Virus record (IMG/VR): IMGVR_UViG_3300045988_179183
Direction: 5' to 3' (one strand)
Source of the DNA: a virus
DNA length: 64,000 bases
The notes under the pieces are model-generated. The model searched no databases. It was not told where the DNA came from and saw only the letters and a list, made by a program, of their open reading frames with translations. Both the position numbers and the translations under genes were made by a program. Shown here piece by piece: positions 19,293-48,575 of the stretch (its first letter is position 1; each line of letters starts with the position of its first letter).

Positions 19293-19293
19293 T

Positions 19294-19878: not shown

Positions 19879-19908
19879 TTTTAAACAATTAATTTATTTC
19901 TAACACCA

Positions 19909-19943
19909 TAAAGATACACAAAGTGTATCGAATTATCAACAAA
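19909..19943 (-). promoter_or_regulatory. Bacteroidota-type promoter, conserved-box class (copy 3)
   Basis: Minus strand reads (T)TTG...CACTTTGTGTATCTTTATGGTGTTA. The -7 box TATCTTTA corresponds to plus 19909-19916, 30 nt upstream of the CDS start at 19878. Confidence 0.55.
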
Positions 19944-19966
19944 AACAGAGATTATTTTCTCTGTTT
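19943..19966 (-). terminator. Rho-independent terminator at the end of the dCTP-deaminase-like gene
   Basis: 8-bp stem aaacagag/ctctgttt with an 8-nt loop spanning the stop codon. The minus strand continues TTTTTGTTG. Overlaps the -33 region of the next promoter. Confidence 0.5.
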
Positions 19967-20452: not shown

Positions 20453-20476
20453 AATCTCTAATTTATTAAAATTTAA

Positions 20477-21373: not shown

Positions 21374-21803
21374 TACCAGCTATTAATTTATCAAGTTCAT
21401 CTTTGTTATCTTGAAGGGTTGTGATACCGATTTCTTTCATCGCATCCTTGTTGCCTGATTTTTCAACAAGACGTTGAAGGCCTGTATAATTCCATGAGGA
21501 ATACTCACCAACTTTATTATCAGCGACCAAAAAACCAACCTTTTCCTCGTCCGTTAAACCACTAACGACTAAAACATCAAACTCTTCAACGCCAAGTAGC
21601 TGTAACGCTTTGAATCTCGTGTTTCCCGCAAGTATCGTTCCTTCTTCATCAACAACAATAGGATTGATATATCCATATTCTTGGATGCTTTTTGCAACAA
21701 TTTTCGCGGATTTCGAATTTTTTCGAGGATTCAATGGGTGGCAGCGTATGTCACCCACGCTCACCCATTTAATTTCCTTCCGTATTTTCTTTATCGCCGA
21801 CAT
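21366..21803 (-). CDS. ParB N-terminal (ParB/Srx) domain protein
   Basis: 145 aa. VSVGDIRCHPLNPRKNS ... VVDEEGTILAGNTRFKAL is the ParB-box pattern (GxxR). Overlaps the DpdA start by 8 nt and begins 3 nt after the FolE stop. Confidence 0.7.
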   Translation of the reverse strand: MSAIKKIRKEIKWVSVGDIRCHPLNPRKNSKSAKIVAKSIQEYGYINPIVVDEEGTILAGNTRFKALQLLGVEEFDVLVVSGLTDEEKVGFLVADNKVGEYSSWNYTGLQRLVEKSGNKDAMKEIGITTLQDNKDELDKLIAGID

Positions 21804-21806
21804 ATT

Positions 21807-22448
21807 TTATTTTCTCCCGAGTTTATAAATCTGTATCGCTCTTAAAAACTCATCTCGGCTATTCATCTCATTTGTTAAAAACGCCCCCGAACAATAGTGG
21901 GTTGTCATCGTACTATTATCTTCCGCGCCCCGCATACTCACGCACATATGTTCCGCCTCAATATAAACTGCGATACCCAGCACTGTGTCGCCGAATATGT
22001 TAACCAAATAATCATGAATCTGACGAGTTAATTGTTCTTGTAATTGAGGCCGTTTGGCGAACCAGTGAACTATTCTGTTTAGTTTCGAAAGACCAATAAC
22101 TTGGCCACTTTCCTTGCTGATATACGCCAAACTACAGAATCCTGTGAACGGAAGTAAATGGTGTGAACACAATGAATTCACCTCGATCCCATGTTCAATT
22201 ACCATACCTGAGTATCCTGAACTTGGGAATACCGCCAATTTCGGAGGTGCAGAATACGCACCTGACGTGATTTCATTGACAAACATTTTCGCAACCCTGT
22301 ACGGTGTTTTTATCATGTTAGGGTCATTCTTCCAATCATACCCCAGGGCCTCCAAGAACTTACCGTACGCCTCGGTGGCCCTTGCCAACATCTCGTTTCT
22401 ATCATCATCGGAAAGAACGACGTTCCCTCCTGCCATTATTTTTTTCAT
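21807..22448 (-). CDS. folE: GTP cyclohydrolase I (FolE)
   Basis: 213 aa. SLCSHHLLPFTG (CxHH zinc site), RPQLQEQLTRQI, EAEHMCVSMRG. All are hallmark GCYH-IA motifs. Confidence 0.9.
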   Translation of the reverse strand: MKKIMAGGNVVLSDDDRNEMLARATEAYGKFLEALGYDWKNDPNMIKTPYRVAKMFVNEITSGAYSAPPKLAVFPSSGYSGMVIEHGIEVNSLCSHHLLPFTGFCSLAYISKESGQVIGLSKLNRIVHWFAKRPQLQEQLTRQIHDYLVNIFGDTVLGIAVYIEAEHMCVSMRGAEDNSTMTTHYCSGAFLTNEMNSRDEFLRAIQIYKLGRK

Positions 22449-22473
22449 ATTTCGTGTTTTATCTCGTTTTTAA

Positions 22474-23238
22474 CTAAGCATCTCTCTTATCTCCGAAGAT
22501 TATTATATGTAAGCGGTCAGAGTAGAAGTAGCCCAAATCTATACATCTCTGTGCCAACCATTTTCTTTTCTCTGCCAGTTTCTCCTCGGTATCCCCCTCC
22601 GGCATCAGATAGACTATTACAGGCCAGAAGGGGTCCAGTTTAGATACCTCCTTCTTAATTTTCCGAACTTGTCTCTCGACTTCCTTTATATCATCCTCCG
22701 AGGACACCACATATTTCAACTGCGAGAATTTCGATTCCATGATCCATGACACTATAGCGGGGATATTCTCCCTCGTTTTCGCGTGTTTCTCCGCGAATTC
22801 GCCCGAACTCGGAATTGAACTCTTCAATTTAGGTGAGATTGATACGACGTCTACGTACGTATCCTCATCCAGTACATCACCTCTCGCGATGGTTCCGTTC
22901 GTTTCCATGCTCACACTCAACTTATGTCTCCGACCTATCTCGATCAACGATCTCAACAATTCGGGATGAAGGGTCGGTTCTCCCCCGGTAATAAGCATGC
23001 ATTTTATCTGAGGGTTCATGATTATGATATCGACGACATCGTTCAATGAATATTTACCCTTTTCCGGGTTCCACGAGCTGTAGGCCGTGTCACATATACT
23101 CCCTTTAAAAGTACATCTCAGGTTACACCCAGATGTTCTTATAAGAATATGGGGGACCCCCACCTTCATACCCTCTCCCTGTATACAGGTGTGCAAATCA
23201 ATAATCGGTTGAATTTCTGAATAATCCATTTTTAACAT
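22474..23238 (-). CDS. queE: 7-carboxy-7-deazaguanine synthase QueE (radical SAM)
   Basis: 254 aa. IQGEGMKVGVPHILIRTSGCNLRCTFKGSICDTAYS, LITGGEPTL. Confidence 0.85.
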   Translation of the reverse strand: MLKMDYSEIQPIIDLHTCIQGEGMKVGVPHILIRTSGCNLRCTFKGSICDTAYSSWNPEKGKYSLNDVVDIIIMNPQIKCMLITGGEPTLHPELLRSLIEIGRRHKLSVSMETNGTIARGDVLDEDTYVDVVSISPKLKSSIPSSGEFAEKHAKTRENIPAIVSWIMESKFSQLKYVVSSEDDIKEVERQVRKIKKEVSKLDPFWPVIVYLMPEGDTEEKLAEKRKWLAQRCIDLGYFYSDRLHIIIFGDKRDA

Positions 23239-23465
23239 AAATAAGCGTTATACAATTCTATAAACTCGGCGAGATCCAGTTCTGAGAATCTCCGTTCTTT
23301 CGCAATCTCTTTAATAAGATCAAGTTGATTTTCATAAAGCTCGTCCGCCATCTCACCATACCCGCTCACCCTTAAATCAATCACAGGCAATGAAAGTTCA
23401 AATGCCAGACTTTCATCAAACCCATAGCGATCAACAAGATCATTTAGTTCCTTTTTCGTTATCAT
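23232..23465 (-). CDS. small acidic hypothetical protein within the deazaguanine operon
   Basis: 77 aa. Overlaps the QueD stop (4 nt) and the QueE start (7 nt), implying co-translation. No motif. Confidence 0.55.
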   Translation of the reverse strand: MITKKELNDLVDRYGFDESLAFELSLPVIDLRVSGYGEMADELYENQLDLIKEIAKERRFSELDLAEFIELYNAYLC

Positions 23466-24037
23466 AACTTCACTTGTAGTTCAACCTTTGGGTTCACGAA
23501 TTTAATCCCTCGAAAAAGTTTATGATAAATCTCAGTTTTTGCCAGTGAAGGGCTAACTTCTATTTCTTCGGGATACATTTCCAAGTATCTATCATAATCA
23601 TTTCGATCCGATTCGGCATAACCAGTATCTGTTTCATGAACTCGCACTGATTGCACAACCACGTTACCCTCACCATTGTTAAATTCTGTTTTTTCCAATA
23701 TCGATTCAAAACAAGCGAAAAACATGGATGAGAGTAATTCAGCGGAGGGATTGCAAGGTAAAATTATCCACCTATCATTCATCGCCTGTATAAAATTTTT
23801 GTAAACCTCGTTATCCTTCGCCCACAATAAATGAGTATGATCGAATAAATCAACGACTTCTTTAAAATTACCAAGAAGACCGAAATCGACGACCATCCCT
23901 GCGTTATCCAAACGATCCGAGGTCAAAAATAACTCAACTTTATAGCTGTGTCCGTGAATTGAATGTGAACATCTGTCCGATGTACAATTTCTCACAATAT
24001 GGCTTCCCTCAAACTTAAACAATTTTCTAATTATCAT
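23462..24037 (-). CDS. queD: 6-carboxy-5,6,7,8-tetrahydropterin synthase QueD (PTPS family)
   Basis: 191 aa. FKFEGSHIV...CSHSIHGHSYKVELFL (PTPS zinc-His motif), VVDFGLL, VRVHETDTGYAE. Confidence 0.85.
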   Translation of the reverse strand: MIIRKLFKFEGSHIVRNCTSDRCSHSIHGHSYKVELFLTSDRLDNAGMVVDFGLLGNFKEVVDLFDHTHLLWAKDNEVYKNFIQAMNDRWIILPCNPSAELLSSMFFACFESILEKTEFNNGEGNVVVQSVRVHETDTGYAESDRNDYDRYLEMYPEEIEVSPSLAKTEIYHKLFRGIKFVNPKVELQVKL

Positions 24038-26982: not shown

Positions 26983-29900
26983 TCAATCCAAATCAACAAA
27001 ATCAATCATTGCCTGTACGTTGTTTTCCCTCAAATCTTGTATTGCCATGAACGATGACATACATATATCATCATGTCCACAAACTGATTCAAGAGTCCCT
27101 TTCTTTGAGTTAAACGCGATTGAATTAAATTCACCAAACATCGTATCAACCAACTTTCGTGTGTTTTCATCTCCGTAAGGCACCCTCAAACGTGCACTTT
27201 CAAAAAACGCTGATAGTGAGGGTAGACCTGATTTCAGATCCTTTTTATTCCCTTCAGTTGTGATAAATTCCTCGACATTAACTAATCCCCTCTCTTTCGC
27301 CATACCCGCAAGAATTCTTTGAAATCCATTCGACTCACACACGGATTTGTTCGGTTTATATCTCGCGTTAAATTCAATAAGTTTATTCACTTGAAGATCA
27401 TGGCTCGCACCCTGCTCTCTAAATATATTTATAAGATATATCAATCCGTGTGCATCCATACCCCATACAGTGTATACTGTATAATCGGCACCCACATTAC
27501 CCGATATCGCAAAATCACATCCCACGACAACCCTGACTAACTTTATGGGGTAACTTTCTATATCATTTGCGAAACTGATATGTTCCATCCCACGTATCGA
27601 TCTTTTCAGAAATTCATACGGGAAAATCGTTGACGTGTCCGCGATCGGCACAACTAGATATTCTCGGTTGAAAACTAACGTTCCAAGTGATTTCCGTTCC
27701 TCCGTTAACCTTTTAAACGTAAGACGATCAGGTGCTAACAGTTGACCATTTGGGAAAACCGCCGGGTATTCAAATACCTTGAATCGGCCATCTTTTTTTA
27801 AATCCCCGTAAATATCCGTTGCCGAATACGGTGTGTTGTGTGATATTATCCCATTCGAAATAAACCGATGAGAAATTGGGATTTTGAAATCAACGGTGTA
27901 AGACTCACTCTCAATTATCGATTTTATCGGTGCGAAATGATACTTCAAATTCATATTACTCAAAATAATCTGAACATCAGGATCATTTTGAGGTAAAGAT
28001 AAAATCCATTTTTTTATCGGTCCGTTCATTCTTTTAAAAGAATGAACTTTCGTATAAAAATCCCCCGATCTCATACCGTAAAATTTCATCTTATCATTAC
28101 CCAACGGATATTTTGATCGAATCTTTCTTAATATCACCGATTGAAACGGTATTCCTTTATCAATGCAAGAGGATTCTCTCCTAGTTTCTCGCGGAACCTT
28201 CCCTTTTCCTGAATAAGTGAACCCGATTTTCTCCATGAATAGTTTCACGCTCGAATTTTTGCTTATAACCAAATTGTATCCTGTTCGGTTTGATTTAACT
28301 AATTCGGTTGATTGGCATTTTTTCTTCTCAATACGTGAATCAATCCCCATGTTAAGAAGAAGTATTTGAATCTGCTGGATTAAACGAAAGCTCGTTGAAA
28401 AATAGCTTACATTTATTCCTTTATCTGAACGATGTCCGTGATAGCAGCATCCATCGCCATCAAAACACCCTCGAAGAAACCATATAACATCCTCCTCGGA
28501 CGCACTCATGATTTTATCAGGAATTGTCTTGGTATGCGAATACATCCCTTTTCGATACCCTAAACTCAACCACGTGGAGATTTTCTCCTTGCTATTAAAC
28601 GACATCCCTATGTGATTTTTCTTAGGGTGATACCCCCTCTCATTAATCAGAAAATTTCTTATACCGGGATTCTTTTTTGTTATCGTGACCCTATTTCCAT
28701 AACCACTTAAATCCAACGTACCGTCCGCTATACAAAGCCCGATTTCATAAAGCTCCTCCCCTTCTATACCAAGAGAACGACCCCAAATATTTGACCCCAT
28801 CTTAAACGCGACAAAATCTCCTTCATACAAATCTTTCGCGTTAACCCATTCGAATAAGCCCGTTTCCGAATTACATCTAAGTAAAGGATGAATGAAACTT
28901 GTTTCAATCTCCAATCCGTTTGAAAGGGTTATGATTTTTGTGGGGGTTTTTCCGTTTACGTAATAGTCTGTCGCGTTAACAAATCCCTCACCATCATGAA
29001 TGTTCATATCAAGAGGGAAAAACCCCTTCTCTCTTTCAATATTAACAGGAGATAATTTGCCAATTTCAGTTAAACCGTTTTCGGTAAACACGTACGTATC
29101 TGGTCTCACACAACCGAGTACACATAAATAGCCGAACGGTTCCACGATCGGAGTGATTGACCCGTAAAAAACTTCATGAAGCTTCTCCCTTTGCTCTTGT
29201 GAATACAACGAACTTTCATCAGGCAGGTCGTCGCATACGACGGCACCAACGTGAAGACCTCGAATCATGGAATCTTTCGATCTCAAATGGAGGATTGAAT
29301 CTGTTTCAGTCGTGATTGATGTCGCGGCTAACTTAGCTTTTCCGTTGCGATTCAATTTCTCCCGAAGAATATCATTTTGCTCTATCTCGGAAATAATCAT
29401 CGCGATGTGTTTCTTGCCGAGTGTTTCATTATTCGTAATCATACACGTTTCCTTACGATTCTTATTGTCGATACTATCCCTAAGAAACGTGGTTGGTCGG
29501 TCATAAGAATATAACCTCCATAAAATGAATGCAAAACACCCCTCGTAACTATTATGTACAACGGTCCCATCTTTCAAGAGAAAAAGGTGATCTCCGTCAC
29601 AAGAAAAACCAACATAATCGCCATCACCGATACATTCAACCTTGAGAGAGGTTGATAAATTATCCTGCACCGTGATTTTTGAAGGTATCTTCTTTCTTTC
29701 TATTTTCACAGGAATTTCATCAACATCTCCCGAAATTGTTATCCTGTAATGAGTATAATCATGAAGGATGTTTTCACCCTTTAATGTTTTCACCTTTACA
29801 TCTGCCGTCCGAGTTATAATCGAATTACATCTGAATCCCAATGATTGAGCAAGTCTTTGCGTTTGCTCTATTAAATTCCTGTCCTTAAACCCAATTTCAA

Positions 29901-30996
29901 AAGCATATTTACTTCGAGGATTTCCTTTTTTATACTGGGATGAACCGTCAGTATCAATTAACCCGGCTAAAAGTTTCAACCGTTGTTCCCTTGATCCAAG
30001 AAGATAAATTTCAGGTATATGCTTATTACCAAGAACCCCTAAATCTTTAAGAGCGGTTTTTAGGCGGTTTTTGAATAACCTTTCTTTTTCAATAATTCGA
30101 TATGAATATTTATTTGAATTATGTTTTGACAAAATAAAACCGTTTTTCTCACAAAATTCATTTAAATATTCAATTATTTCATGATCAATAGTTGTCACTA
30201 CGGGTTCCGTGTATAAACCATCACCCAACCACAACCCCAATAAATACGGATCAACAGGAAGGTCTTTTTCAGGAAGGTCCCACCCCTTCGTTCTATACCC
30301 CATTATTTTTCTCTGAGTGTACCCTGGCATAGAGGGGATCTCCTCAACGGGAATATTAAAGGTTTTCCAGCGCATATCTTTCCCAATACGTTTTTCATAT
30401 CGAGATGGAACCTTCTTTTTGCAACAAACAATATGACCCTCGTTTACAACGTAATCAATACCCCATGTTTGTTTCACTTTCCACATTCTCGATCTACCTT
30501 TGTGTAAAGATAAAACGGTTCTTGGTTTTGAATCGGGCCCCATAACTTGATCTCCGATCGAAACATCCTTTATCTTGCGAATCGTTCCATCAGCCATCAC
30601 TATTTCTGTCTCGGGAGATAAACACTTTCCCGATGAGCGGCTCGCTAAAATGCAGTTATACAAATATAACTGGAATAGGTTACCCCATTCAAGGTTTCTC
30701 CATCCCTGTCGAAACGTTGGAAGACAAACAGTTTTAAAATAATTATAACTCTGCTTACGTAGCGAGAGGTCCATGCTCTTCTCCACGTTGGCGAGATATT
30801 CCAGTTTTTCCATGTCAAGAGTTCTATCCATGTGGGTAACGATGCATGTTTGTTCTCTCATCACGGATAGAAGCCGATCCAAATCATTTTCATAACCTGA
30901 AAGTAACTCTTGGATCGCCTTCGGTGGTAAACTCGATATTATCTCCCTGACGTAGTTATCTATATAGCTTTCTTGTACGGGAGATAATAACATCAT
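26983..30996 (-). CDS. terL: Terminase large subunit (TerL) interrupted by two inteins
   Basis: The exteins (124+146+283 aa = 553 aa) carry Walker A ILASRSSGK|S, Walker B GAVVCDDLPDES, the coupling motif VLG|TPYS, and the RNase-H-like nuclease motif VVVGCDFAISGNVGADYTVYTVWG ... HDDICMS. Confidence 0.85.
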   Translation of the reverse strand: MMLLSPVQESYIDNYVREIISSLPPKAIQELLSGYENDLDRLLSVMREQTCIVTHMDRTLDMEKLEYLANVEKSMDLSLRKQSYNYFKTVCLPTFRQGWRNLEWGNLFQLYLYNCILASRSSGKCLSPETEIVMADGTIRKIKDVSIGDQVMGPDSKPRTVLSLHKGRSRMWKVKQTWGIDYVVNEGHIVCCKKKVPSRYEKRIGKDMRWKTFNIPVEEIPSMPGYTQRKIMGYRTKGWDLPEKDLPVDPYLLGLWLGDGLYTEPVVTTIDHEIIEYLNEFCEKNGFILSKHNSNKYSYRIIEKERLFKNRLKTALKDLGVLGNKHIPEIYLLGSREQRLKLLAGLIDTDGSSQYKKGNPRSKYAFEIGFKDRNLIEQTQRLAQSLGFRCNSIITRTADVKVKTLKGENILHDYTHYRITISGDVDEIPVKIERKKIPSKITVQDNLSTSLKVECIGDGDYVGFSCDGDHLFLLKDGTVVHNSYEGCFAFILWRLYSYDRPTTFLRDSIDNKNRKETCMITNNETLGKKHIAMIISEIEQNDILREKLNRNGKAKLAATSITTETDSILHLRSKDSMIRGLHVGAVVCDDLPDESSLYSQEQREKLHEVFYGSITPIVEPFGYLCVLGCVRPDTYVFTENGLTEIGKLSPVNIEREKGFFPLDMNIHDGEGFVNATDYYVNGKTPTKIITLSNGLEIETSFIHPLLRCNSETGLFEWVNAKDLYEGDFVAFKMGSNIWGRSLGIEGEELYEIGLCIADGTLDLSGYGNRVTITKKNPGIRNFLINERGYHPKKNHIGMSFNSKEKISTWLSLGYRKGMYSHTKTIPDKIMSASEEDVIWFLRGCFDGDGCCYHGHRSDKGINVSYFSTSFRLIQQIQILLLNMGIDSRIEKKKCQSTELVKSNRTGYNLVISKNSSVKLFMEKIGFTYSGKGKVPRETRRESSCIDKGIPFQSVILRKIRSKYPLGNDKMKFYGMRSGDFYTKVHSFKRMNGPIKKWILSLPQNDPDVQIILSNMNLKYHFAPIKSIIESESYTVDFKIPISHRFISNGIISHNTPYSATDIYGDLKKDGRFKVFEYPAVFPNGQLLAPDRLTFKRLTEERKSLGTLVFNREYLVVPIADTSTIFPYEFLKRSIRGMEHISFANDIESYPIKLVRVVVGCDFAISGNVGADYTVYTVWGMDAHGLIYLINIFREQGASHDLQVNKLIEFNARYKPNKSVCESNGFQRILAGMAKERGLVNVEEFITTEGNKKDLKSGLPSLSAFFESARLRVPYGDENTRKLVDTMFGEFNSIAFNSKKGTLESVCGHDDICMSSFMAIQDLRENNVQAMIDFVDLD
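27835..29112 (-). mobile_element. TerL intein 2 (426 aa, LAGLIDADG) in the ATPase coupling motif
   Basis: Starts CVRPDTYVFTENGLTEIGKL (Cys codon 29112-29110). Block B IETSFIHPLL. LAGLIDADG blocks IGLCIADGTL and FLRGCFDGDGC. Ends SNGIISHN with +1 Thr (27834-27832). Confidence 0.88.
29551..30624 (-). mobile_element. TerL intein 1 (358 aa, LAGLIDADG) in the Walker A P-loop
   Basis: Starts CLSPETEIVMADGTIRKIKDVSIGDQV (Cys codon 30624-30622). LAGLIDADG blocks LLGLWLGDGL and LLAGLIDTDGS. Ends LKDGTVVHN with +1 Ser (29550-29548). Confidence 0.88.
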
Positions 30997-35519: not shown

Positions 35520-38500
35520 CTAAAATCAAATTCCAACCTTTTGCTAGCACCAAATCACGAGAAGGCCCACCCTCTTTTAAATAAAGATCACTGTTTGAAT
35601 AATAATACTTACCATCAGTTGTTGAATTTAAGTAACGTAAAAATCCGTTGTAATTACTCAAAAGTTCGGATGCGACACGAGCGTTCTCGGCATGAATTTC
35701 TTTATATGAAGGTGTCTCCGATGAGACTACCATGGTGTCGGCTGAACATCCTGCAAAATTCAGGTATGTTATCCTCGTTGAAGTGAAAACTTCTATCCGC
35801 TCCAACTGTTTACAATTCTCAACAGACATCCATCTTAAATTAGCACAGTATTTTACTGTACCACCGACAGATTTTTGAACCTCCGTTCGAACCGCAGTTG
35901 AACCGCTAATATCAATCACTTCAAGCCCCTCCATATGATAAAGAGGAACCCAACCTTCATACGCGTCTTGTGGTGAGAATTGCGTTAAATTTCTCAAATA
36001 CAACTCTTTCAGTTTACTTGATTGCAATAACGCGTAATAAACTTGCGCACCCGGAAGATTCACAGAATCGGATAAATCAAGATACTCCAACGAAGTGGGA
36101 ACTGCGATAAGCAGGGTTTTCAATGAGTTATTCTTACTCAGATCTAATTTGACAAGATTCCGTGTTACAATCCCGAACGCGGGTATTGATGTGTTCGATG
36201 ATAGCCAAGTTTGAACGTTCATTATCGAATTCCACCAACCGAGTCCATCAATGGTCATATCGGGGTTATTATTTAGGTTGACATTCAATAAATTCGAATT
36301 ATTCGTCAAATCTATAAGTTTCAACTGATTATTGCTCGCATTGAAATCCTCTAGCTTATTACCCGCTGCCAACGCTTTTCCAAATGTTATCGAAGGTTGA
36401 CCTGATGATTGATTTTTTCCCAGTTGATTATACGAGCAATTGAATTTTCTCACATAATCGATTGTAGATAAATCCAACGTTGTTAATTCGTTGTATGAAC
36501 AATTAACAAGTTCAAGTTTAGGAAAACGGAGCGCACCGACATTTTTATAGTAATTGATCAACCGCTGAACATCACTATCGGAAAAGTATCTATCAGTTAT
36601 GATAACATCCTGCGCTCTTCCTTTAAACAACTTCCACCCTGATTGATATCCCCGGCCGAATGATATATGCTCGGTTCCGGTAAATCCAAGTAATCCATCA
36701 TACGATAACGTGTCGCCTCCGGGTGTTGTTGATGCCGTGTATTTAACACCGTCAACATATATCTCGGTTAACCATGGGCCACCATTCCACTTAAATCTGA
36801 ACATGACATGTTGCCATCGATTAGGAGTTAGCTGGATCGCTTGACAGGTTTGACGCCCCGATCTCGTATAAAGGTCGACCGTTAATTTATTTTGGAACGT
36901 ATTTTGCCCCCATCCAATCGCCCATCCAAATTGTCCTGTATTTAACCCGAAAAACACACCACCACATAGCCCCTGATAAGAAGTGACATCCGTTGGATAA
37001 ATCATAAAACTACCTGAAACTTCTGACGTTACATTCGAACTCATTGTTAAAGGTAACTCAGCGTAAGTGCTTCCCATTTGGAGAGCGGATCTACCTTCTT
37101 CGTAACCTTCGACATAGCGCGGTTGCCCGACAATTGATGAAAATTCGAGTAAACTCTTATTCATTTTATTCATGTTTCCGTTAAGCAGATACGCTATGTC
37201 GATCGGGGTGGTCATTGAATTAACCACATCCTCGACATTCTCCGCCGTTGAACCACCCTCCGGCGTGAATGTTAGATTGGTGAGATTGTTATTATCGCAA
37301 TTCAATGTCGTTAAATTCACCGTGTTCGTTAGATTCAATGTAGTCAGTAGGTTTTCACTGATATTTAATACCTGCAATGACTCACCTATTGCGTTTGGAT
37401 CAAACGAGGTCAATAAGTTCTGATTCAGGTTCAAATTCACGATATTTTTACATCCCGTATAATTAAATGTGTGAATTTGATTGTTATATAGATAAACGAA
37501 TTTCAACGCGTTATCCGTCGATATATTAACCGTCTCCAAGGCATTATTATACCCGTTTAAGGTTTCAAGTACAGGGTTGTTCGAAACATCCAGTGTTTCC
37601 ATCAACGCATTATTCGTCGCGGTTGCCGTTTTTAAAACAGGGCAATCATGTAACTCGACAAATTTAAGCTGAGGTTTATTACTGATGGTAAACTGGGTGA
37701 AGTTATTATAACTAGCATCGACATTGACAAGATTATTACTTGTCACAATACTTGCAGCCGAACTATCCGTCAGTAAATTGTGTGAACAGTTCAATCCCCG
37801 TACGCCGGGGTGGGAACTGAGGTTAAGTGATGTTAATTGATTATTATCAACATCAATATTCTTCAACTCAGTGTTATTCGTTAATGTTATCGATGTCAAT
37901 TGATTGTTGGATAAACTCAAATTCGCAAGTTTCGTACAATACGGGGCTGAGAACGTTGTTAATCTATTGTTATCCATCGATAGAGTTGCGAGGTTGCTGT
38001 TTGTACTCAAATCGATCATGGTTGAAATCGATGTATTATCAGTTCTTAAACTCTGTAATTTACCGTCATTCAGAACATTCACGCTCGTCAAAATCGAGTT
38101 ATCACCACAATCAGCTGTCAATAAACTACCGCACCCGGATATATCAACTGAGGGTAATTTCGAGTTATTCGTCACATTTGCCACCGTCATCGCCGGACAC
38201 TTACTCGCTGTCAACGTCGTTAGAAGATCCATCCCCGTGACTGTTAACGAGGTCATCACGGGCATATCGGCTATTAATAGAGTGGTAAGTTTCGGGTAAC
38301 CCGCCCCCGTGAAATTACCCGTGGAGAGGTTATTCTTTCCTATATTCAAATCGACTAAGATGTTCGATGATGGGATTGTGAACGTGGTTAATTTATTATT
38401 ATATACCGTGATCAATTTCAGACTCGTTGCGTTACCCAAGTTCAAAGATGTCATTTGATTATTATCGGCATTCATGTTGATAAGCGCAACATTCGCGGCA

Positions 38501-40859: not shown

Positions 40860-42104
40860 TCAGGTTGTTTTCGTCACGATAAACTTTTGAGTGACTCCCT
40901 GAAATGTAAATTCAAAAACTATATCACCTAACGGGAAAACATTATTAACCGGTAAATACGCTCCACTGCCGTCAAGATTATTCTTGATCTCTTTCATCGA
41001 CCCGGTTATATTATACGGGATTGTAATTCCACTGACGGTCACGGTCGCCTTGAGTGAGTACCCACCCAGCGACCCCTCAACGCCAACATCAGGAGACATC
41101 GACCGGTTAAAATACAAACCATTTATTGCACTCGTTATGATTTTATTCGTTTCCGACGCTGCGGTCATATTAGGCTTGATATTATCTTCCGTGGTACCCG
41201 TTCCACCCGTACAAACGAAAGGCTTCGTTGCTCCCCATGAATCGATAGAAGGTGATTTCGATGTACTCGGCAACATATTACCCTTATACACCCGGTATAA
41301 AAGATTCAGTTCCACGGGTGTGAGTGCCCGTGAAAAGTAGGCATATTCTTGAAGATACCCTTGCCACCAATCTAAGGGAGGTACCGTCGTGCGGAACGCC
41401 CGACCCAACCAGATATTACCATCCCAGGTGTAATCTCGGCCATCATATTGAACCGGGCCCCCTAGAGGATATTGATCGGGTGTCATCAACCCGTATTTCT
41501 CCCCGTTCAAGTAAAATTCAATGGTGTTAGATGATACATCGAGAATCATTATCAGGTGATTCCACCCGTTCACGATCCAATTATCAACATCCGCCTTACA
41601 TACCTGATTTGATGAACCGTTATAAATTTGGAACCTCATCGGCGTGGATGACGGGGTTCCGTTCGCGACATCTAGACCGAGAGCGTATCCCAGACCGGAG
41701 GTTCCCGGACCGTTTAAAACACCACCCATGATCCCGTCATACGTGGTGTTTGACGTACCCATACTGAACGCACAGATGGATATGGTAAACGCGTTCGTAC
41801 CTTTCACTACCGTGGGCAATCGAATGGCCGCACCCCCGTCGATTAAATCAAGGCAAGTCGCCCCGTTAAAGCCGGCTGTGTAATATTCTATATTCCCTAT
41901 CGTTGCACCGGGATCATTACCGTTCCCGGAATAGTCGGTTATATCCCCTCCCAGGGGTAAATAGATAGAAGGTTTCAGGTTAAGTATCGTGTTAATACCG
42001 GCAACCGGCCATAACTTCACACCCTCGAACCACGCTTCTTTCAAGTTCTTACCTTCAAAGGCCCCCGCCTTCAGATCACCCAGTGTTCCCAGTGTTATTC
42101 CCAT
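40860..42104 (-). CDS. LamG/concanavalin-A-like lectin domain tail protein
   Basis: 414 aa. GNGNDPGATIGNIEYYTAGFNGATCLDL...NAFTISICAF...WNHLIMILDVSSNTIEFYLNGEKYG...WQGYLQEYAYFSRALTPVELNLLY fits the Laminin_G_3 pattern. Confidence 0.65.
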   Translation of the reverse strand: MGITLGTLGDLKAGAFEGKNLKEAWFEGVKLWPVAGINTILNLKPSIYLPLGGDITDYSGNGNDPGATIGNIEYYTAGFNGATCLDLIDGGAAIRLPTVVKGTNAFTISICAFSMGTSNTTYDGIMGGVLNGPGTSGLGYALGLDVANGTPSSTPMRFQIYNGSSNQVCKADVDNWIVNGWNHLIMILDVSSNTIEFYLNGEKYGLMTPDQYPLGGPVQYDGRDYTWDGNIWLGRAFRTTVPPLDWWQGYLQEYAYFSRALTPVELNLLYRVYKGNMLPSTSKSPSIDSWGATKPFVCTGGTGTTEDNIKPNMTAASETNKIITSAINGLYFNRSMSPDVGVEGSLGGYSLKATVTVSGITIPYNITGSMKEIKNNLDGSGAYLPVNNVFPLGDIVFEFTFQGVTQKFIVTKTT

Positions 42105-42108
42105 AATC

Positions 42109-45100
42109 TTATCCGAAAACTAAATATAAAACCCCACTTGCCTGTGTAGCCGGTAACGCGTCAACCGGCTGAATATCTGTGACCTTCTTGGTTGAAGTCG
42201 ATTTCACGAAATTCTGGGAATTAACCCACGCCTGAGTCGCGTAACCATTTAATGCAGAACTAGTAATAAATCCACTATCATTAGTCAAATGACTGGTATT
42301 TGTTGGTATATTAACTGTTGCTGCAGCACCATTAGGATCAAATGTTTTAGCAGAGAAAGTTCCAGCTTGGAATGTTAGATTATATATAGTTTGATGTGAT
42401 GTTAGATAACCCTTATTATTTACCCATGTTTGGGTGGCCACTAAATCTCCATTCATGTATAAACTACCCCAATATCCATTAGCATAAGAAGTACTAGAAC
42501 CAGCTCTCCATACCCAAGTAGAAGGAGCATAAGTACAACCAGAAGGAATTCTATAATTAACTATCACTTCATTGGAAGCAGAAGTGGCAATAGTATTTCC
42601 TAAACAAAATTCATTTCCTCTAGTTCTAATAGTAGTATAACTACCAGTAGTATTGTATAATGATAGGGAAGCAAATTGACCATTAGCCCAACTCTGTGTT
42701 GCATATCCATCTAAAGAACTAGATGTTAAATATGTAGCTCCTTTAGTAACAGTTAATGTATGGCCATTAGCTGTTATTGCAGTTACAGCATTACCAGAAC
42801 CACTATTAGATATAGAGATACTTGGTATAGATGGTATTTGATCTGTAGTAGCTATTGTTTTTCCAAATAAAAATCCTTTAGCTGTGCTTAAGTCTAATTG
42901 AAATGTTGAAGTATTAGACAAAGTAATCCTAAAAGTATTACCAGTATTTAATAATTCCATACTAAGTAGTCTTTCAGCTGCAGTGGTAGTATCTATAGCT
43001 GCACCAGATCTTCTAGCTACTAATAAAGGAGTTTGACCCCCATCCCCTGGAACTTGAACACTTAATGCTCCAGCTCCTCCATTCCAATTATTTCCTGTTC
43101 CTCCAACTACATCAATTACAGCATTATTTTTTCTGCTGTTCATGGTCAGAGCACCTGTTAATGTTCCTCCAGACAAAGGTAAATATCCTGAAACAGTAGG
43201 AATATCTGTAATTAAAGCTAATCTAGTACTGCCAGAAGTTGTTCCAACTCTAGCATATCCATCATTATCTATAAATAAATATTTGTTAGAATTATAATTA
43301 TATATATAAGCACCTAGACTATCCATGAATCCTATTGCAGCTGAAGCAGTTCCCCTTCTAAGAACTCTCATAAAAGTTTCAGATCCATTAGTGTCATTAT
43401 TATTAATTACAAGAGTTGTGCTTCCAACTGTATTTATAGTTAAATTGCCTGATAATGTTCCTCCAGTTAGAGGAAGATAATTACCTATATCAGATGTAGT
43501 AGCTAATTTAATCCACTTTCCAAATGATGTCCATTTAGTTCTATAATAAAGTTCTGTCCTATTAGCACCTGCCCATAATTGGATTCCTTCATCATCTCCT
43601 TGAACACTAAATAATAATCCACTACTTGTTGGAGTTCCAGCAACACCCTGAGTTTCAGCATAAAATATTTGATTAGTAGGTACACTATTTGGATTATTAT
43701 TATAAGATGCTGATAATATATTAACATCTTTATTTGTTAATAACCTATTCCATTCTCCATATGTTGTCTCATTATAAGCCATATGCCTATAATAAAGACC
43801 ATTTTTACTAGCTTCTGCACCACCTGGAAACCATAATTGATTTGCCCAATGAGCATTTCTTGAATTTACTTGTAATACAGTTCCATAATTAGTGGGACCT
43901 CCTGCACTAGATACATCATAAGCATCTAATACTTGTAAATACCCACTATAATTTCTATTTGGAGTTAAATCATTTGTCCAAATACTACTTCTAAATCCTA
44001 TTCCATTTTCAATATATATAATTCCTCTAGAATAAATTCCATTAGCAGGTACTAAATTTAAAGCATCACTGGTATAACTTGGTCCTACATACAATCCTCC
44101 AGTAGCTACTTTATGAACTCCACCAGCAGAATTTAGAAACTGAAATGCATTAGTGGAGGCGATCATATATGGACCCGTTACACCGAATACCAATTTGTTG
44201 GTATATACCGATGCGATATATCCTGCCAGAAAAGCCCAACTCGATGATCCTAATTGCGATACACCACCCGATGCAAGACTCTTTTCGACATTGGGAAGGA
44301 AACCATTACCATTTGCTCTCAACCATGGATACGTTGTGCCGTCAACTCTGATGATCGCCGGGTAATTGTTCTCATCGAAAGATAACCCAGCAATATTCTC
44401 ATCTGCGGTCACGACTCTCTTCCAGTTGGATGAATCACCGTACCCAAGGTTATTGGCGGTCCTGAACCACATCCTGCCTGTTCCGTTATCCACGTTATGG
44501 ATTATATCGAATGCGAGCTGAGTTTTCAGTGCCGCCTCATTATAGGATGAAGTGTAAGGTCCATCTATCTGTAATACATTGCCATAACCCATACCAGTAG
44601 GTGCATTGACAATCTTCCCTGGGGTGTAATAATTGAATAGGAGTTTCGGTTTATCCACCCCGATCATAGAATTCGCATCGTACCCATCGTTATTAACAGC
44701 GTGGGAAACAAATCCGTAAGTCCATGTGATGTTTTGGGGGAGGAACTCCGTGTAATTCGATGAATCAAGAATCGTGTAATCAGTTGCCCCCTTGGTGTGA
44801 ATCAAATTGACATTACCACTTCTAATTTTAGTGGTACCTGAAGCACGACCTAAATGTGCCAACGTTGAACTCTGAGACCAAACCAACGCATTACCGTTCG
44901 GGTCATCCAATGACCATGTGATTGGAACTACTAATGAAGCGGGTTTGAATTTATATTGTGCTGTACTAGAATTAACATCTCCTATACCTATATAAGCATA
45001 TCCAAGATTAGTATTATTAACTGAATTGTATCCTCCAAATATAGACTTTGAAGTGGCATCACTATTAGCTTGAAATGTAAGATTTCTTGCCCATGCACTT

Positions 45101-47106
45101 CCTGCAGGTGTACTTATATTTACTAACAAATGTTCATTATTTGTAACTTCAAAAGAACCCACATTAAATTTACCTACTTGAAATGTGTTATTACCAGTAA
45201 ATGTATTATTCCCTGATTTCGTTGCGGGATCAGATAAATTATATTTATCCCAGATTTCATAATAAGTTCCACCATGTCCAATAGCCCATTTATCTCCTGC
45301 ATATCCAAATACCCCTAACTGAGAGGCTTGTGAATTTATAGCTTGTATAATACAATAATTATCAGCATCAGTGGACTGTAATCTCAATTTAATATCCACT
45401 GATTGTTTTATTGTAAGTTGTCCAGTTAAGGTACCTCCAACAAGTGGAAGGTACTTACCGTCACCCAGATCCTCTAATTGTTGCCATACGGGTGCGCCGG
45501 TACCGCTTGAGACAAGGTAATATCCTTTTGTTCCGACCGTTGTCGGGGCGAAGATCGACGTTGTCGGTGCGTTCGTCGCGCTTAAAAAAGTCCATCCTGT
45601 TCCATTAACACTCAAATTTCGATCGTATATCGTCGTGGGTGTCCCAATGGCACCACCGTTATAAACTGTGGGTTTACTAAGATTATAGGAATCCCATATT
45701 TTATATGGGGTGGTATGTCTATAATGTATTAAATCCTTATTCGAACTATAAATATTAAGATCTAATGCCGTGTTGCCAAAGCTTAATGTTTCTATGTTGT
45801 TAGTATTGTTGATAATTAAAAGTGTGGCAATCCCTTGTGATATTGATGCCAATAAGGGCTTGTTACCAAGATTTATACTACCAGTCATTGTGCCACCAGA
45901 AAGTGGTAAATAATTAGCTAAATCAGTTGTGCTCGCCGGGGTTGGTAGGTTATAAGCATCCCATATTTTATAACTAGTATCCGACCTATGATGTAAGAGA
46001 TCGCTAGCATTTGAAATAATTCTAGTTGAAAGAGCTGCTGATCCTATATCAAGTCGATTATTAAAAGATCTTAATATGTAGGTGTCACCAGTGCCATCAG
46101 CATTTCCTATTATACCTGATTCTGCAGGAAATCTAATACTACCCTTCATTGTACCACCGGCAAGGGGGAGGTAATTGGTTAGTTTATTATTGAAATCATC
46201 ACTTAACGTTTTTAACGCGTCCGTGACAGCTTTCTGAGACATGACTTTATCCGTCGCCGCACCCGATACTTGAAGAACTGATGCTTTGTCAAACTTCAAA
46301 TTAAGGGCATCCGTCGTTGCCTTCTGAGACATCGGATCAATTGTTGATTCCCCGGTTCCTTGCTGACTCACCAACCGATTGATGATATCATTATAATTAT
46401 GTTTATGCGCCGGTGTGAGCGGAGTGAGTGGTGAGGGATCTCCCGGAACGATTGATCCATTTGATAGAGCCTGTAACCATGAATATTGTCCCGGCAACAT
46501 AACCCCGGCTAATTGATCTGTCGCACCTTGAATCGTTGTCTCCTTTCCGGCAGAGCTGTGAATCGTCACCTCCGTCTCCGAATATGACGTGGTTAAGTTA
46601 ACCGTGATATTTATCTTTCCCAGGGATTCCCAGGACCGGGTGACCTCATCCCAGACAATCTTCTCCGAATCCTCGAATGTCTTCCCGCTATACGGATCTG
46701 TTACCGTCCCCCCGACGGGTGAAGTGATGATAACGTACATATCACCCGCTTCCAACGTTGATGGATTAGGAAAATCCGCGCTCACCCGGATCACCCCCTT
46801 GAAATCAAGAGGATTACCCACGGCACTTTTAACGAAATCCTTTACGGTTATCTTGTAATTGACGTTATTCGAATTAATCAACATGTAATCACCATCATCC
46901 GCTAGTTGCCGGGGTGGTAATGTAACCAGCCACCCGTCGACATACGCTCGAACCCATTTATGGGTTGCAAGTTCCGACCATGCCGACCCGTCGTAGGCAC
47001 GAAACACAAACGGAACAACCGTGTTATCCAACCATATCAGGTTGGTATTGCGGGGAGCGGAACTCCCTATATATATGGCCGCGACCTGTCCTAAATTTCT
47101 AATCAT
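42109..47106 (-). CDS. Long tail fibre protein with repeated YLPLSGGTxTG motifs and reiterated distal modules
   Basis: 1665 aa. Five copies of the phage-fibre repeat (NYLPLAGGTMKGSI, NYLPLSGGTMTGSI, KYLPLVGGTLTGQL, NYLPLTGGTLSGNL, GYLPLSGGTLTGAL). Recurrent YGxVLQ...W.R/K modules. Repeated GYATQxW motifs near the C-terminus. Confidence 0.8.
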   Translation of the reverse strand: MIRNLGQVAAIYIGSSAPRNTNLIWLDNTVVPFVFRAYDGSAWSELATHKWVRAYVDGWLVTLPPRQLADDGDYMLINSNNVNYKITVKDFVKSAVGNPLDFKGVIRVSADFPNPSTLEAGDMYVIITSPVGGTVTDPYSGKTFEDSEKIVWDEVTRSWESLGKINITVNLTTSYSETEVTIHSSAGKETTIQGATDQLAGVMLPGQYSWLQALSNGSIVPGDPSPLTPLTPAHKHNYNDIINRLVSQQGTGESTIDPMSQKATTDALNLKFDKASVLQVSGAATDKVMSQKAVTDALKTLSDDFNNKLTNYLPLAGGTMKGSIRFPAESGIIGNADGTGDTYILRSFNNRLDIGSAALSTRIISNASDLLHHRSDTSYKIWDAYNLPTPASTTDLANYLPLSGGTMTGSINLGNKPLLASISQGIATLLIINNTNNIETLSFGNTALDLNIYSSNKDLIHYRHTTPYKIWDSYNLSKPTVYNGGAIGTPTTIYDRNLSVNGTGWTFLSATNAPTTSIFAPTTVGTKGYYLVSSGTGAPVWQQLEDLGDGKYLPLVGGTLTGQLTIKQSVDIKLRLQSTDADNYCIIQAINSQASQLGVFGYAGDKWAIGHGGTYYEIWDKYNLSDPATKSGNNTFTGNNTFQVGKFNVGSFEVTNNEHLLVNISTPAGSAWARNLTFQANSDATSKSIFGGYNSVNNTNLGYAYIGIGDVNSSTAQYKFKPASLVVPITWSLDDPNGNALVWSQSSTLAHLGRASGTTKIRSGNVNLIHTKGATDYTILDSSNYTEFLPQNITWTYGFVSHAVNNDGYDANSMIGVDKPKLLFNYYTPGKIVNAPTGMGYGNVLQIDGPYTSSYNEAALKTQLAFDIIHNVDNGTGRMWFRTANNLGYGDSSNWKRVVTADENIAGLSFDENNYPAIIRVDGTTYPWLRANGNGFLPNVEKSLASGGVSQLGSSSWAFLAGYIASVYTNKLVFGVTGPYMIASTNAFQFLNSAGGVHKVATGGLYVGPSYTSDALNLVPANGIYSRGIIYIENGIGFRSSIWTNDLTPNRNYSGYLQVLDAYDVSSAGGPTNYGTVLQVNSRNAHWANQLWFPGGAEASKNGLYYRHMAYNETTYGEWNRLLTNKDVNILSASYNNNPNSVPTNQIFYAETQGVAGTPTSSGLLFSVQGDDEGIQLWAGANRTELYYRTKWTSFGKWIKLATTSDIGNYLPLTGGTLSGNLTINTVGSTTLVINNNDTNGSETFMRVLRRGTASAAIGFMDSLGAYIYNYNSNKYLFIDNDGYARVGTTSGSTRLALITDIPTVSGYLPLSGGTLTGALTMNSRKNNAVIDVVGGTGNNWNGGAGALSVQVPGDGGQTPLLVARRSGAAIDTTTAAERLLSMELLNTGNTFRITLSNTSTFQLDLSTAKGFLFGKTIATTDQIPSIPSISISNSGSGNAVTAITANGHTLTVTKGATYLTSSSLDGYATQSWANGQFASLSLYNTTGSYTTIRTRGNEFCLGNTIATSASNEVIVNYRIPSGCTYAPSTWVWRAGSSTSYANGYWGSLYMNGDLVATQTWVNNKGYLTSHQTIYNLTFQAGTFSAKTFDPNGAAATVNIPTNTSHLTNDSGFITSSALNGYATQAWVNSQNFVKSTSTKKVTDIQPVDALPATQASGVLYLVFG
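42242..44159 (-). other. CpG-free compositional island inside the tail-fibre gene (encodes ~aa 983-1621)
   Basis: A visual scan of every line, including the 10-mer and line junctions, found no CG dinucleotide between the CpG at 42240/41 and the one at 44160/61. Flanking fibre sequence and the rest of the window are CpG-rich. GpC is not depleted. Confidence 0.85.
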
Positions 47107-47461
47107 TCACAGTTTGAATTAATTGTCCATCTAACCTATCTATCTTGTATTGATCGGGATTGTTCGATTCAACGATCAAATCACCGCTTCCATCAACATA
47201 AAATGTATCCTCGACCCCTCCCTTAACTCTCATCACCAAATCACCGATACCGATCTTCTCGCCCTCCATTGTCCTGTCAAACTGGGATATGAAAAAGAAC
47301 AAAAATTCTCCCGCCCCATCCTTGTCATAATAGGTTAATATCTCAATATAAGGTCTGTATATATTGAAGACGGTCGATGTATTCAGTTTCTTAGTCTCCG
47401 GCATAATCACTGGGATAAAATATCGGTGACAGTACTCCGTTTGAATCAAATATTGGATCAC
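47099..47461 (-). CDS. hypothetical baseplate/fibre-attachment protein
   Basis: 120-aa ORF (alternative start at 47404) between the baseplate-J-like gene and the tail fibre gene. Overlaps the fibre start by 8 nt. Confidence 0.5.
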   Translation of the reverse strand: MIQYLIQTEYCHRYFIPVIMPETKKLNTSTVFNIYRPYIEILTYYDKDGAGEFLFFFISQFDRTMEGEKIGIGDLVMRVKGGVEDTFYVDGSGDLIVESNNPDQYKIDRLDGQLIQTVND

Positions 47462-48575
47462 CTTTTAAATCTCTCATCACAAACCCCCTAATACGAGGAA
47501 GCTCATTTATGGGAACAAGCTCGTCGGCAGAAGGATAAAATGTTGAATCTTGGACATACTTAACACCCTCCGTATCCTTCACTATACCTAATAAATCATC
47601 CCACTCTACCTTCGATCCCGGTACCCAGTATCTAAAATCGAGATACTTTGTCATCGCGATTTGAATATTCCGACGTACATCATCGGGATCATAGTTATCT
47701 GCTATCTCAACCCTGAAATCAACACCCCGGCTTCCACCCACACTATACCATTTCACATTCGTAAGAACTATCTCAACTGTATCGCCATATTTATTTCTAT
47801 CACTTAGCGGGAAATATGGTGCAGCTTGTTCTAGTAAATTTGCCAACTCAGTATCGGTAAACTCAACGCCATTCTGAGTCGAAAGTGCTAATTGTAATTT
47901 CGCATTCTCATTTACACCGAAATTAAAAAACATCAGCACTCTATCGTCTATATTTTGGAAAACTTGTGTGAAATATTCCCTTGTACCAATTGATAATATA
48001 TTCAAATTATTTCTAATCCGAATCCTGAATGTTTCATCATCTTCTGAATCTCTCCCTCCCACCGCGTAATATTCGTTTGAACACGCCTTATGACCGACAG
48101 GTTCGGGAACCACATTCGTAATCGTATTAGGGGCTACATTCGTCTGAGATCCTGTTCCAGCGCTCCTCACTTTCACATACGTATAGCCGTTATCACCCAC
48201 TGTTGCATCAAACTCGGTCATAAAACGAACACCGTTTATATTCACGAATTCCGTTTTACCGGCTTCGTAAAAAGTTCCCTGTTCGGCGATAACCTTAACA
48301 TAGGTCGAAGATCCCAGCGCACCCTTTCGCGGACTAACACCGAATAGCTGGGCCGCGACATCGAGATCACTCCCGGAAGCTGTATCCGGGAATATACGTG
48401 CCGCCACGATCGCGACGTCCTTTAAACACTTCTGCCCGACTTTCGCAACACCGAAAGCCGTGGCATTCACAACCGAGTTATCGCTGATATCCGACACTTT
48501 ATCAGTTTTATTCAGGAACAACTCGATGAACAAACTTTTCAGAAGGGATATTGTATGTTTAACGCCTATTATCAT
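47391..48575 (-). CDS. Baseplate J-like (wedge) protein
   Basis: 394 aa. LFGVSPRKGALGSSTYVKVIAEQGTFYEAGKTEFVNINGVRFMT...VKVRSAGTGSQTNVAPNTITNV fits the Baseplate_J pattern. Lies just upstream of the fibre genes. Confidence 0.55.
   Translation of the reverse strand: MIIGVKHTISLLKSLFIELFLNKTDKVSDISDNSVVNATAFGVAKVGQKCLKDVAIVAARIFPDTASGSDLDVAAQLFGVSPRKGALGSSTYVKVIAEQGTFYEAGKTEFVNINGVRFMTEFDATVGDNGYTYVKVRSAGTGSQTNVAPNTITNVVPEPVGHKACSNEYYAVGGRDSEDDETFRIRIRNNLNILSIGTREYFTQVFQNIDDRVLMFFNFGVNENAKLQLALSTQNGVEFTDTELANLLEQAAPYFPLSDRNKYGDTVEIVLTNVKWYSVGGSRGVDFRVEIADNYDPDDVRRNIQIAMTKYLDFRYWVPGSKVEWDDLLGIVKDTEGVKYVQDSTFYPSADELVPINELPRIRGFVMRDLKGDPIFDSNGVLSPIFYPSDYAGD

Follow-up and report, generated by a model that had tools for sequence, protein, structure and literature searches.

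Mosaic tail-fiber genes have reportedly been described for P2 gene H, Mu, P1, and lambda stf and for gp37-gp38 of the T-even phages, in work attributed to Haggard-Ljungquist et al. 1992, Sandmeier 1994, and Tetart et al. 1998. We analyzed a tail-fiber gene in a 64,000-nucleotide (nt) stretch of the IMG/VR virus record IMGVR_UViG_3300045988_179183 (here called the window), whose distal part lacks the dinucleotide CpG over 1.9 kb. As in P2, Mu, P1, lambda, and the T-even phages, distal modules of this fiber move at short conserved motifs between phages that otherwise share no genes, the N-terminal attachment part is lineage specific, and alleles differ between otherwise identical genomes. Unlike in the classic mosaic fibers, the partners are a crAss-like short-tailed lineage and a contractile-tailed human gut phage, and the donor's lack of CpG marks the origin and direction of the imported DNA. 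We conclude that the CpG-free block is very probably foreign DNA recently copied from crAss-like fiber genes, with its lack of CpG inherited rather than selected locally; the block would lack CpG because the crAss-like phages from which it was copied are themselves nearly CpG free. The mosaic fiber is of a known kind, and the near absence of CpG from the genomes of crAss001 and DAC15 is the less expected result.

Composition of the CpG-free block

The original prediction held that no CG occurs between the CpGs at 42240/41 and 44160/61, in a block of about one-third G+C where GC dinucleotides stay common and tens of CpGs would be expected. The computed count agreed exactly, and this interval (1920 nt between the CpGs at 42240 and 44160) is the longest CpG-free interval in the window, which contains 3045 CpG at 39.9% G+C, an observed/expected ratio (o/e) of 1.24. 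The block itself, 42242-44159, has 33.5% G+C and 0 CpG versus 52.8 predicted from its C × G composition (Poisson P ~1e-23), and its GpC content is normal (61 observed; o/e 1.16). When the 639 residues it encodes, amino acids (aa) 983 to 1621, were recoded with the codon usage of 14 other window genes, the result was 110.6 ± 8.6 CpG, with a minimum of 80 in 2000 trials. Synonymous-codon shuffles drawn from the block's own usage gave 8.9 ± 2.4 CpG, and zero CpG was reached in 0/5000; CpG is therefore avoided across codon junctions too, where none of the 28 C-ending codons in the block stands before a G-starting codon.

The prediction also held that the adjacent fiber sequence and every other gene use CpG freely. 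This was correct for the other genes, since every 1918-nt window outside the fiber gene has at least 63 CpG and the longest CpG gap there, in a check for similar tracts across the window, is only 162 nt. It held only in part for the fiber gene, which has two significant CpG-free patches upstream of the block. The next-longest CpG gaps in the window, of 280, 234, and 165 nt (44940-45220, 45225-45459, and 45769-45934), all lie in this gene, and at 0.0476 CpG/nt the expected number of gaps per window is ~0.005 for at least 280 nt and ~0.04 for at least 234 nt. The CpG gap is real and far beyond chance. The plus strand of the window also has C well above G (15272 versus 10288), with GpC and TpA under-represented (0.74 to 0.77) and CpG over-represented (o/e, 1.24 to 1.28).

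The block is foreign to the window in more than its CpG content. Only 68 of its 638 codons (~10%) have G or C at the third position, and its arginine codons are AGA and AGG only, while TCG, ACG, CCG, GCG, and CGN are in free use in the N-terminal part of the fiber gene. The symmetrized dinucleotide odds of the block are 0 for CG, 1.22 for AG/CT, 1.12 for TA, and 1.13 for GC; those of the rest of the window are 1.23, 0.76, 0.77, and 0.74, respectively, and those of pooled crAss-like loci are 0.00, 1.31, 0.97, and 0.98. Both the codon usage of the block and its Karlin dinucleotide signature resemble crAss-like genomes and crAss001, not the window background. The composition of this part of the gene breaks with the resident genome and fits another lineage, as would be expected of a mosaic fiber.

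Fiber modules shared with crAss-like phages

We retrieved homologue-bearing stretches (loci L001 and so on) from the IMG/VR and ENA sets by protein and locus searches with aa 983 to 1621. Homologues are many and lie on contigs of ~100 kb, whose names place the samples in human gut metagenomes. Group B comprises relatives of the window phage with shared gene order, with flanks of ~40% G+C and a CpG o/e of 1.2 to 1.5. Group A comprises crAss-like phages on ~100-kb contigs, with flanks of 27 to 32% G+C and 0 to 5 CpG per 22 kb. Genomes of this lineage have 29 to 32% G+C, and its loci of 12 to 22 kb contain 0 to 5 CpG each. The original prediction proposed a donor with extreme CpG avoidance, and closely similar fiber genes were found in these contigs. 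A third, unclassified lineage (L003, L019, L051, L062, and L079; contigs of ~101 to 110 kb) has ~30% G+C and a flank CpG o/e of 0.1 to 0.36, and a single distant crAss-like contig, L070, has 43% G+C and an o/e of 0.81. The homologous cassette is CpG poor in all classes of carrier. In the third lineage it is CpG free between flanks with 2 to 11 CpG per kb, with a DUF7841 protein nearby, and it entered this moderately depleted genome as well.

One group A contig encodes Pfam Crass_capsid (E value, ~1e-184), CrAss_Ring_3_4, crAss_AuxCP, and crAss_THA, and the flanks of the remaining group A loci are 75 to 100% identical at the amino acid level to this lineage, mostly at least 90%. The capsid protein encoded on the Crass_capsid contig shares no more than 60% identity with those of cr108_1 and crAss001 (Steigviridae). 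The donors are Crassvirales near Steigviridae and form a distinct uncultured group. Among GenBank phages, we found no match to the fiber or the cassette by megablast and tblastn and none to two donor loci by megablast. A scan of 185,579 species-representative bacterial and archaeal genomes with the cassette found no close homologue, the one match being an irrelevant one of 32% in a Neisseriaceae metagenome-assembled genome (MAG). An engineered or synthetic CpG-free sequence is ruled out by the dozens of natural variants in gut metagenomes.

These searches bear on the source of the modules, which might have passed in the opposite direction, from a myovirus, bacterial prophage, or tailocin into crAss-like phages, or have come to both partners from a common third CpG-free source. 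The pool is indeed wider than two partners, since the third lineage (L003/L019 type; o/e, 0.15 to 0.36) and L070 also carry a CpG-poor cassette, and annotations in Alloprevotella and Segatella MAGs include distant homologues. However, the cassette has the same signature as the crAss-like genomes as a whole, no bacterial or archaeal species genome held a close homologue, and bacterial protein matches are at most 39% identical. DNA from a CpG-rich genome would also need complete recoding and yet stay 98 to 99% identical. We consider a source other than the crAss-like phages highly improbable.

The nucleotide identity of fiber genes in CpG-free crAss-like contigs to the window is 82 to 99%. By tblastx and blastn, the flanking genes show no similarity between the two phage lineages, and the likeness is confined to the fiber gene, at 42190-46212. 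Nucleotide similarity to crAss-like loci covers 42220-44208, 44908-45270, 45221-45457, and, weakly, 45881-45973, which coincides with the main CpG-free block and the smaller CpG-poor patches; the flanking stretches 42001-42246 and 45875-47299 have matches in group B only. The fiber gene has near relatives in an unrelated group of phages, and the likeness stops at the gene, as would be expected of a mosaic fiber. Across 43001-44050 and at 42251, 150-nt tiles are 98 to 99.3% identical to crAss-like contigs. Among contiguous matches, those to crAss-like L048 (92.0% over 1619 bp) and to the myoviruses L045/L046 (93% over 1964 bp) are the best.

Relations among alleles change along the gene. In the sister myovirus L001, both flanks are 100% identical to the window and the cassette is 88 to 99% identical in a mosaic pattern. 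In 42739-43160, group B L001, L007, and L021 are 3 to 4% distant from group A L006 and 21% from the window, and in 43163-43483 the nearest relative of the window is crAss-like L017, at 1.6%. The ~60-nt block at the 3' crossover encodes LTNDSGFITSSALNGYATQ, and the window equals crAss-like L006 up to GGTTA and then equals L001/L007. At the other end, L005 turns donor-like 55 to 100 nt earlier than the window, and breakpoints differ between relatives. As judged from junction alignments, repeat families D1 to D3, and distance matrices, the breakpoints appear to lie at conserved motif-coding blocks and the relations to be incongruent along the gene, which would again be the mark of a mosaic fiber. 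In segment-wise distance matrices, the alleles of the two lineages interleave, and the exchange is therefore recent and repeated; this pattern indicates homologous recombination, at the motif blocks that the fibers have in common, among modules of a shared pool. The import is a mosaic of modules drawn repeatedly from this pool rather than one block, and it includes the two patches upstream, 44940-45220 and 45225-45459, which have the same crAss-like origin as the main block.

The same junctions raise the prospect of an assembly chimera, in which the contig would join CpG-rich myovirus reads to co-occurring crAss-like reads at shared fiber motifs. Blocks of ~60 nt common to both lineages are places where assemblers can switch, and successive tiles have their best matches in different contigs. 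However, the reading frame is intact through both junctions, native sequence resumes on either side of the cassette, and the combination of CpG-rich flanks and a CpG-poor cassette recurs in at least 20 loci from different assemblies and samples, ~100-kb contigs among them. The cassettes in CpG-rich genomes also have a distinct, slightly raised CpG density. A chimera is very unlikely.

We judged the likely direction of transfer from CpG counts in strict homologues of 42260-44100, tallied per genomic background; some loci are present in more than one collection, so that the counts are not fully independent. There were 4 CpG in 29,165 nt from crAss-like genomes (0.14 per kb), 0 in 6,217 nt from the third lineage (0 per kb), and 32 in 30,471 nt from CpG-rich myovirus genomes (1.05 per kb). 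The myovirus background is ~55 to 60 CpG per kb, so that the imported copies stand at ~2% of background density, and a random substitution in the block would create a CpG in ~11% of cases. The sampled crAss-like fibers showed no CpG-rich patch. The modules evolve in a CpG-free setting, and CpG gain starts only after arrival in the myovirus, where copies are replaced or still young; the window copy, with 0 CpG, ranks among the freshest. Judged by composition, modules seem to pass in one direction only, out of crAss-like phages and into the myovirus.

These counts also bear on an alternative raised in the original prediction, selection against a CpG-containing target within this fiber segment. 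Such a target might be a restriction or regulatory site, with its CpGs purged in place. The sharp bounds of the block and the avoidance of CpG even at codon junctions do speak for a DNA-level pressure somewhere in the block's history. The rest of the recipient genome is CpG enriched (o/e, 1.28), however, codon usage and dinucleotide composition are foreign as a whole and not in CpG alone, and near-identical DNA resides in genomes that are CpG free throughout. Copies in CpG-rich genomes hold ~7 times the CpG of crAss-like copies, which is the opposite of continued purging. Nor does the present genome show the maintained genome-wide depletion that goes with recognition-site avoidance (o/e, 1.24 to 1.28; cassettes gain CpG). 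Local selection is not needed and is contradicted by the CpG-rich recipient and by resident copies that gain CpG (1.05 versus 0.14 per kb), and we regard it as exceedingly unlikely.

Our preferred reading remains recent import from crAss-like phages. We propose that the distal 640 codons and two short upstream modules were copied in by homologous recombination from crAss-like fiber genes, while the fiber kept its native attachment end and its own last 44 codons. Recombination would occur at short blocks conserved in all these fibers since they encode structural motifs (YLPLxGGT, GYATQxW, and YxIWDxxN), and the setting of the exchange may have been co-infection of a common Bacteroidales host. 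Several points weigh against this reading. Over the whole block, none of the sampled crAss-like contigs exceeds 92% identity, and the immediate donor is not among them. Assemblers that hop between co-occurring variants could have made part of the fine mosaic, and the direction is read from composition. The IMG/VR and ENA loci overlap (L002 = L050 and L005 = L058), and the contig counts overstate independence. Finally, the extreme C terminus is native and the structure model is poor, so that a receptor-binding role for the import is something we infer.

The fiber gene and its resident phage

The features of the fiber gene and of a cluster of modification genes in the window are listed in Table 1.

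Table 1. Positions of the fiber gene, its parts and junctions, and other genes of the window
Feature	Position (nt)	Strand	Observation
Tail-fiber gene	42109-47106	-	One intact open reading frame (ORF), 1665 aa; just downstream of baseplate genes
Native C-terminal tail, last 44 aa, CpG rich	42109-42241	-	10 CpG in 132 nt; 100% identity to L001
CpG-free block, aa 983 to 1621, distal modules very probably of crAss-like origin	42242-44159	-	Statistics, dinucleotide signature, identity tiles
3' junction	42246-42300	-	Conserved block encoding ...LTNDSGFITSSALNGY(ATQ), common to fibers of both lineages; crossover inside
5' junction zone	44110-44215	-	Window follows L005 to ~44215; unique CpG-containing stretch to 44160; donor-like from ~44110
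CpG-containing middle fiber segment	44160-44939	-	Tiles 85 to 100% identical to L005/L058; no group A nucleotide match
Second CpG-free patch, 280 nt, donor-like module	44940-45220	-	79 to 89% nt identity to crAss-like L006, L012, L017, and L069
Third CpG-free patch, 234 nt, donor-like module	45225-45459	-	89 to 96% nt and 92 to 94% aa identity to crAss-like L009, L010, and L026
Native N-terminal part (attachment end), CpG rich	45980-47106	-	95 to 100% identical to window-phage relatives only
414-aa protein with concanavalin-A-like lectin/glucanase domain (Laminin_G_3)	40860-42104	-	Pfam E = 1.2e-10
QueC	17562-19349	-	E = 4.6e-36; intein splicing and LAGLIDADG domains
DpdA-like	20477-21373	-	Queuine tRNA-ribosyltransferase-like PHROG, E = 1.6e-10
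FolE (GTP cyclohydrolase I)	21807-22448	-	E = 1.3e-48
QueE-like	22474-23238	-	Radical-SAM protein
QueD (PTPS)	23462-24037	-	E = 3.5e-22

The CpG-free block belongs to the tail-fiber gene of a tailed phage. The neighbors of this gene encode a baseplate wedge/Baseplate_J protein (47391-48575), the tail sheath, and the major head protein, and fiber homologues carry Pfam Phage_fiber_rpt and Gp53-like_C. The native C-terminal tail is conserved among sister myoviruses and has no similarity to crAss-like contigs, and the middle segment has ~50% protein-level similarity to crAss-like fibers only at 44017-44403. The third CpG-free patch spans, on the plus strand, a YEIWDKYNL-type coding motif to a YLPLxGGT coding motif (45407-45453), as seen in repeat families D1 to D3. 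The predicted aa range of the block, 983 to 1621, was correct, and the two YLPLxGGT repeats predicted within it were found at 43139-43185 and 43433-43479. The blocks encoding YLPLxGGT, GYATQxW, and YxIWDxxN recur along the fiber gene and bound small patches, and the cassette contains collar-like motifs. A search for repeats within the fiber gene found no long template/variable pair, which was the only check made toward a diversity-generating retroelement.

The AlphaFold model of the cassette was poor, with a mean predicted local distance difference test (pLDDT) score of 56 and two confident beta domains at block residues 75 to 220 and 260 to 315. Foldseek with this model gave only weak matches (template modeling [TM] score, ≤0.27), to a phi812 baseplate chain, the R2 pyocin fiber, and the Mu fiber, which we take as no more than consistent with a fiber, and a sequence search of the PDB gave no match. 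The distal position of the modules and the diversity of their alleles among near-identical genomes suggest that the cassette may set receptor specificity. Of the original proposal of an imported receptor-binding cassette, the import from a CpG-avoiding donor is upheld, and the receptor-binding part stays conjectural, with the last 44 aa being native. The 414-aa Laminin_G_3 protein adjoins the fiber in relatives as well, gene order being identical in L021, and may be a tip adhesin or accessory protein; the native 44-aa tail and this adjacent lectin-like protein may together form the actual tip. A 1751-aa leucine-rich-repeat (LRR) protein is also encoded downstream of the fiber. Within the LRR-protein gene, 36853-36993 (-), ~45 aa are 42 to 47% identical to part of the small fiber-repeat protein encoded behind the fiber gene in crAss-like loci (for example, L009 8946-9077), which may be another shared fiber motif.

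The window phage is contractile tailed and comes from the human gut; its genome is ~100 kb, 40% G+C, and CpG rich. The contigs of its relatives are ~100 to 102 kb, and its head protein is 52 to 54% identical to unannotated human-fecal contigs and 38% identical to that of the Bacteroides thetaiotaomicron myovirus DAC19. It does not belong to Crassvirales: the sheath, the baseplate wedge, and a head protein closest to those of unclassified gut contigs and DAC19 are found here, and the crAss markers are found in the donor contig. All ORFs of at least 200 aa in the window are on the minus strand, and no tRNA gene was found in it.

FolE, QueD, QueE, QueC, and a DpdA-type gene lie together at 17562-24037 (-) and make up a 7-deazaguanine cluster with the full preQ0-type gene set. 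Hutinet et al. 2019 reportedly showed that 7-deazaguanine modification protects phage DNA from restriction. From its gene content, the window phage probably modifies its guanines. Genes resembling dCTP deaminase (19952-20452) and ParB_N (21366-21803) are in the same stretch. The window phage also has many selfish insertions. Its RecA gene, 6356-8356 (-), has Hint and LAGLIDADG domains and probably contains an intein; the large-terminase ORF, 26983-30996 (-), encodes 1337 aa with extra endonuclease- and helicase-like matches; and DNA polymerase III alpha, 11657-16056 (-), is in two ORFs split by a homing-endonuclease ORF (13707-14507).

CpG depletion among crAss-like phages

The depletion found in the donors extends to named crAss-like phages. 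In crAss001 (MH675552, 1-100000; L032/L033), there are 84 CpG in 100 kb, many of them in the tRNA block (o/e, 0.03). In 12-kb stretches sampled from DAC15 (L034), cr106_1 (L036), IAS virus (L037), and cr85_1 (L035), the o/e is 0.01, 0.02, 0.046, and 0.067, respectively. Like crAss001, Steigviridae, and Asinivirinae, the donor lineage has a Crassvirales capsid and tail module and an almost CpG-free genome; unlike crAss001, it is more extreme, at 0 to 5 CpG per 22 kb, and it stands as a separate, uncultured group. Other families of gut crAss-like phages are less depleted, with o/e values of 0.55 to 0.91. The o/e is 0.545 for cr108_1, 0.59 for Suoliviridae cr10_1, and 0.91 for Suoliviridae cr7_1. 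The marine Cellulophaga phage phi14:2 has an o/e of 0.57.

Among phages that infect Bacteroides thetaiotaomicron, the CpG o/e varies over a more than 100-fold range, from 0.01 in DAC15 and 0.11 in the myovirus DAC19 (L039; 22.5% G+C) to 1.42 to 1.44 in the siphoviruses ARB25 (L040) and HNL05 (L041). A host-imposed pressure on all phages is ruled out by this span from 0.01 (DAC15) to 1.44 (ARB25) within one host species, and the pressure is therefore specific to the phage lineage and not a blanket property of the host or the gut. As for restriction of palindromic NCGN sites as a cause of the loss, CpG is depleted in all contexts and not at palindromic sites alone. In the donors, the TpG/CpA excess is small (1.05 to 1.13), so that a simple history of methylation and deamination is not evident. 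Outside the tRNA block, residual CpG in crAss001 is in CCGG in 18/62 cases versus 3% expected, and ACGT and GCGC are almost absent. The residual CpG set of the donor lineage differs from that of crAss001, in small numbers. One donor-lineage CpG (GATTAGCGACCTTG, at locus position ~3575, close to the capsid gene's 3' end) is conserved in L022, L023, L025, and L026.

Elimination of short words is known from other viruses. Staphylococcus phage K is reported to lack GATC. Avoidance of restriction recognition sites in phage genomes is treated by Rusinov et al. (2018; PMC6286503, cited in PMC12707154). Like the phages that avoid such sites, the donors have eliminated a short word genome-wide in a virulent phage despite a permissive base composition. 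Unlike in restriction-site avoidance, which concerns 4- to 6-bp, mostly palindromic sites, the donors lose a 2-bp word in all contexts, and the void in the window is inherited. To our knowledge, no single known restriction enzyme explains the loss of the 2-bp CpG in all contexts. Vertebrate viruses are depleted of CpG through sensing by ZAP and TLR9 and through methylation followed by deamination. As in those viruses, CpG is specifically scarce in the donors and GpC is normal; unlike them, the donors are bacterial phages with only a small TpG/CpA excess and a far more complete depletion. In the paper library searched, we found no description of CpG elimination in crAss-like phages, and one may be published elsewhere. 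A large 2025 CpG survey of phages (10.1101/2025.05.15.652987) includes only four Bacteroidota phages and no crAss-like phage.

A clade of human gut crAss-like phages that includes crAss001, DAC15, and the donor lineage has lost CpG from whole genomes of ~100 kb (o/e, 0 to 0.07). We tentatively suggest that this purge could reflect an agent that acts on unmodified CpG as such; a Bacteroidales defense is one candidate, and CpG sensing by mammals is a less likely one. In that case, the purge would make the traffic in fiber modules one-way, from CpG-free to CpG-tolerant phages, and the recipient may tolerate CpG through guanine modification by the 7-deazaguanine pathway. It is plausible, as a speculation, that word avoidance and base modification are alternative answers to one CpG- or G-directed defense.

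Swaps of fiber modules are a known route by which phages alter their host range. The direction and tempo of fiber swaps are usually invisible, and here the donor's lack of CpG labels the imported DNA. An unrelated contractile-tailed phage and the crAss-like phages, which rank with the most abundant viruses in the human gut, have a live pool of fiber modules in common. The near-total elimination of CpG from crAss001-like genomes points to a strong constraint and bears on restriction evasion, on TLR9 sensing of gut phage DNA, and on composition-based host prediction.

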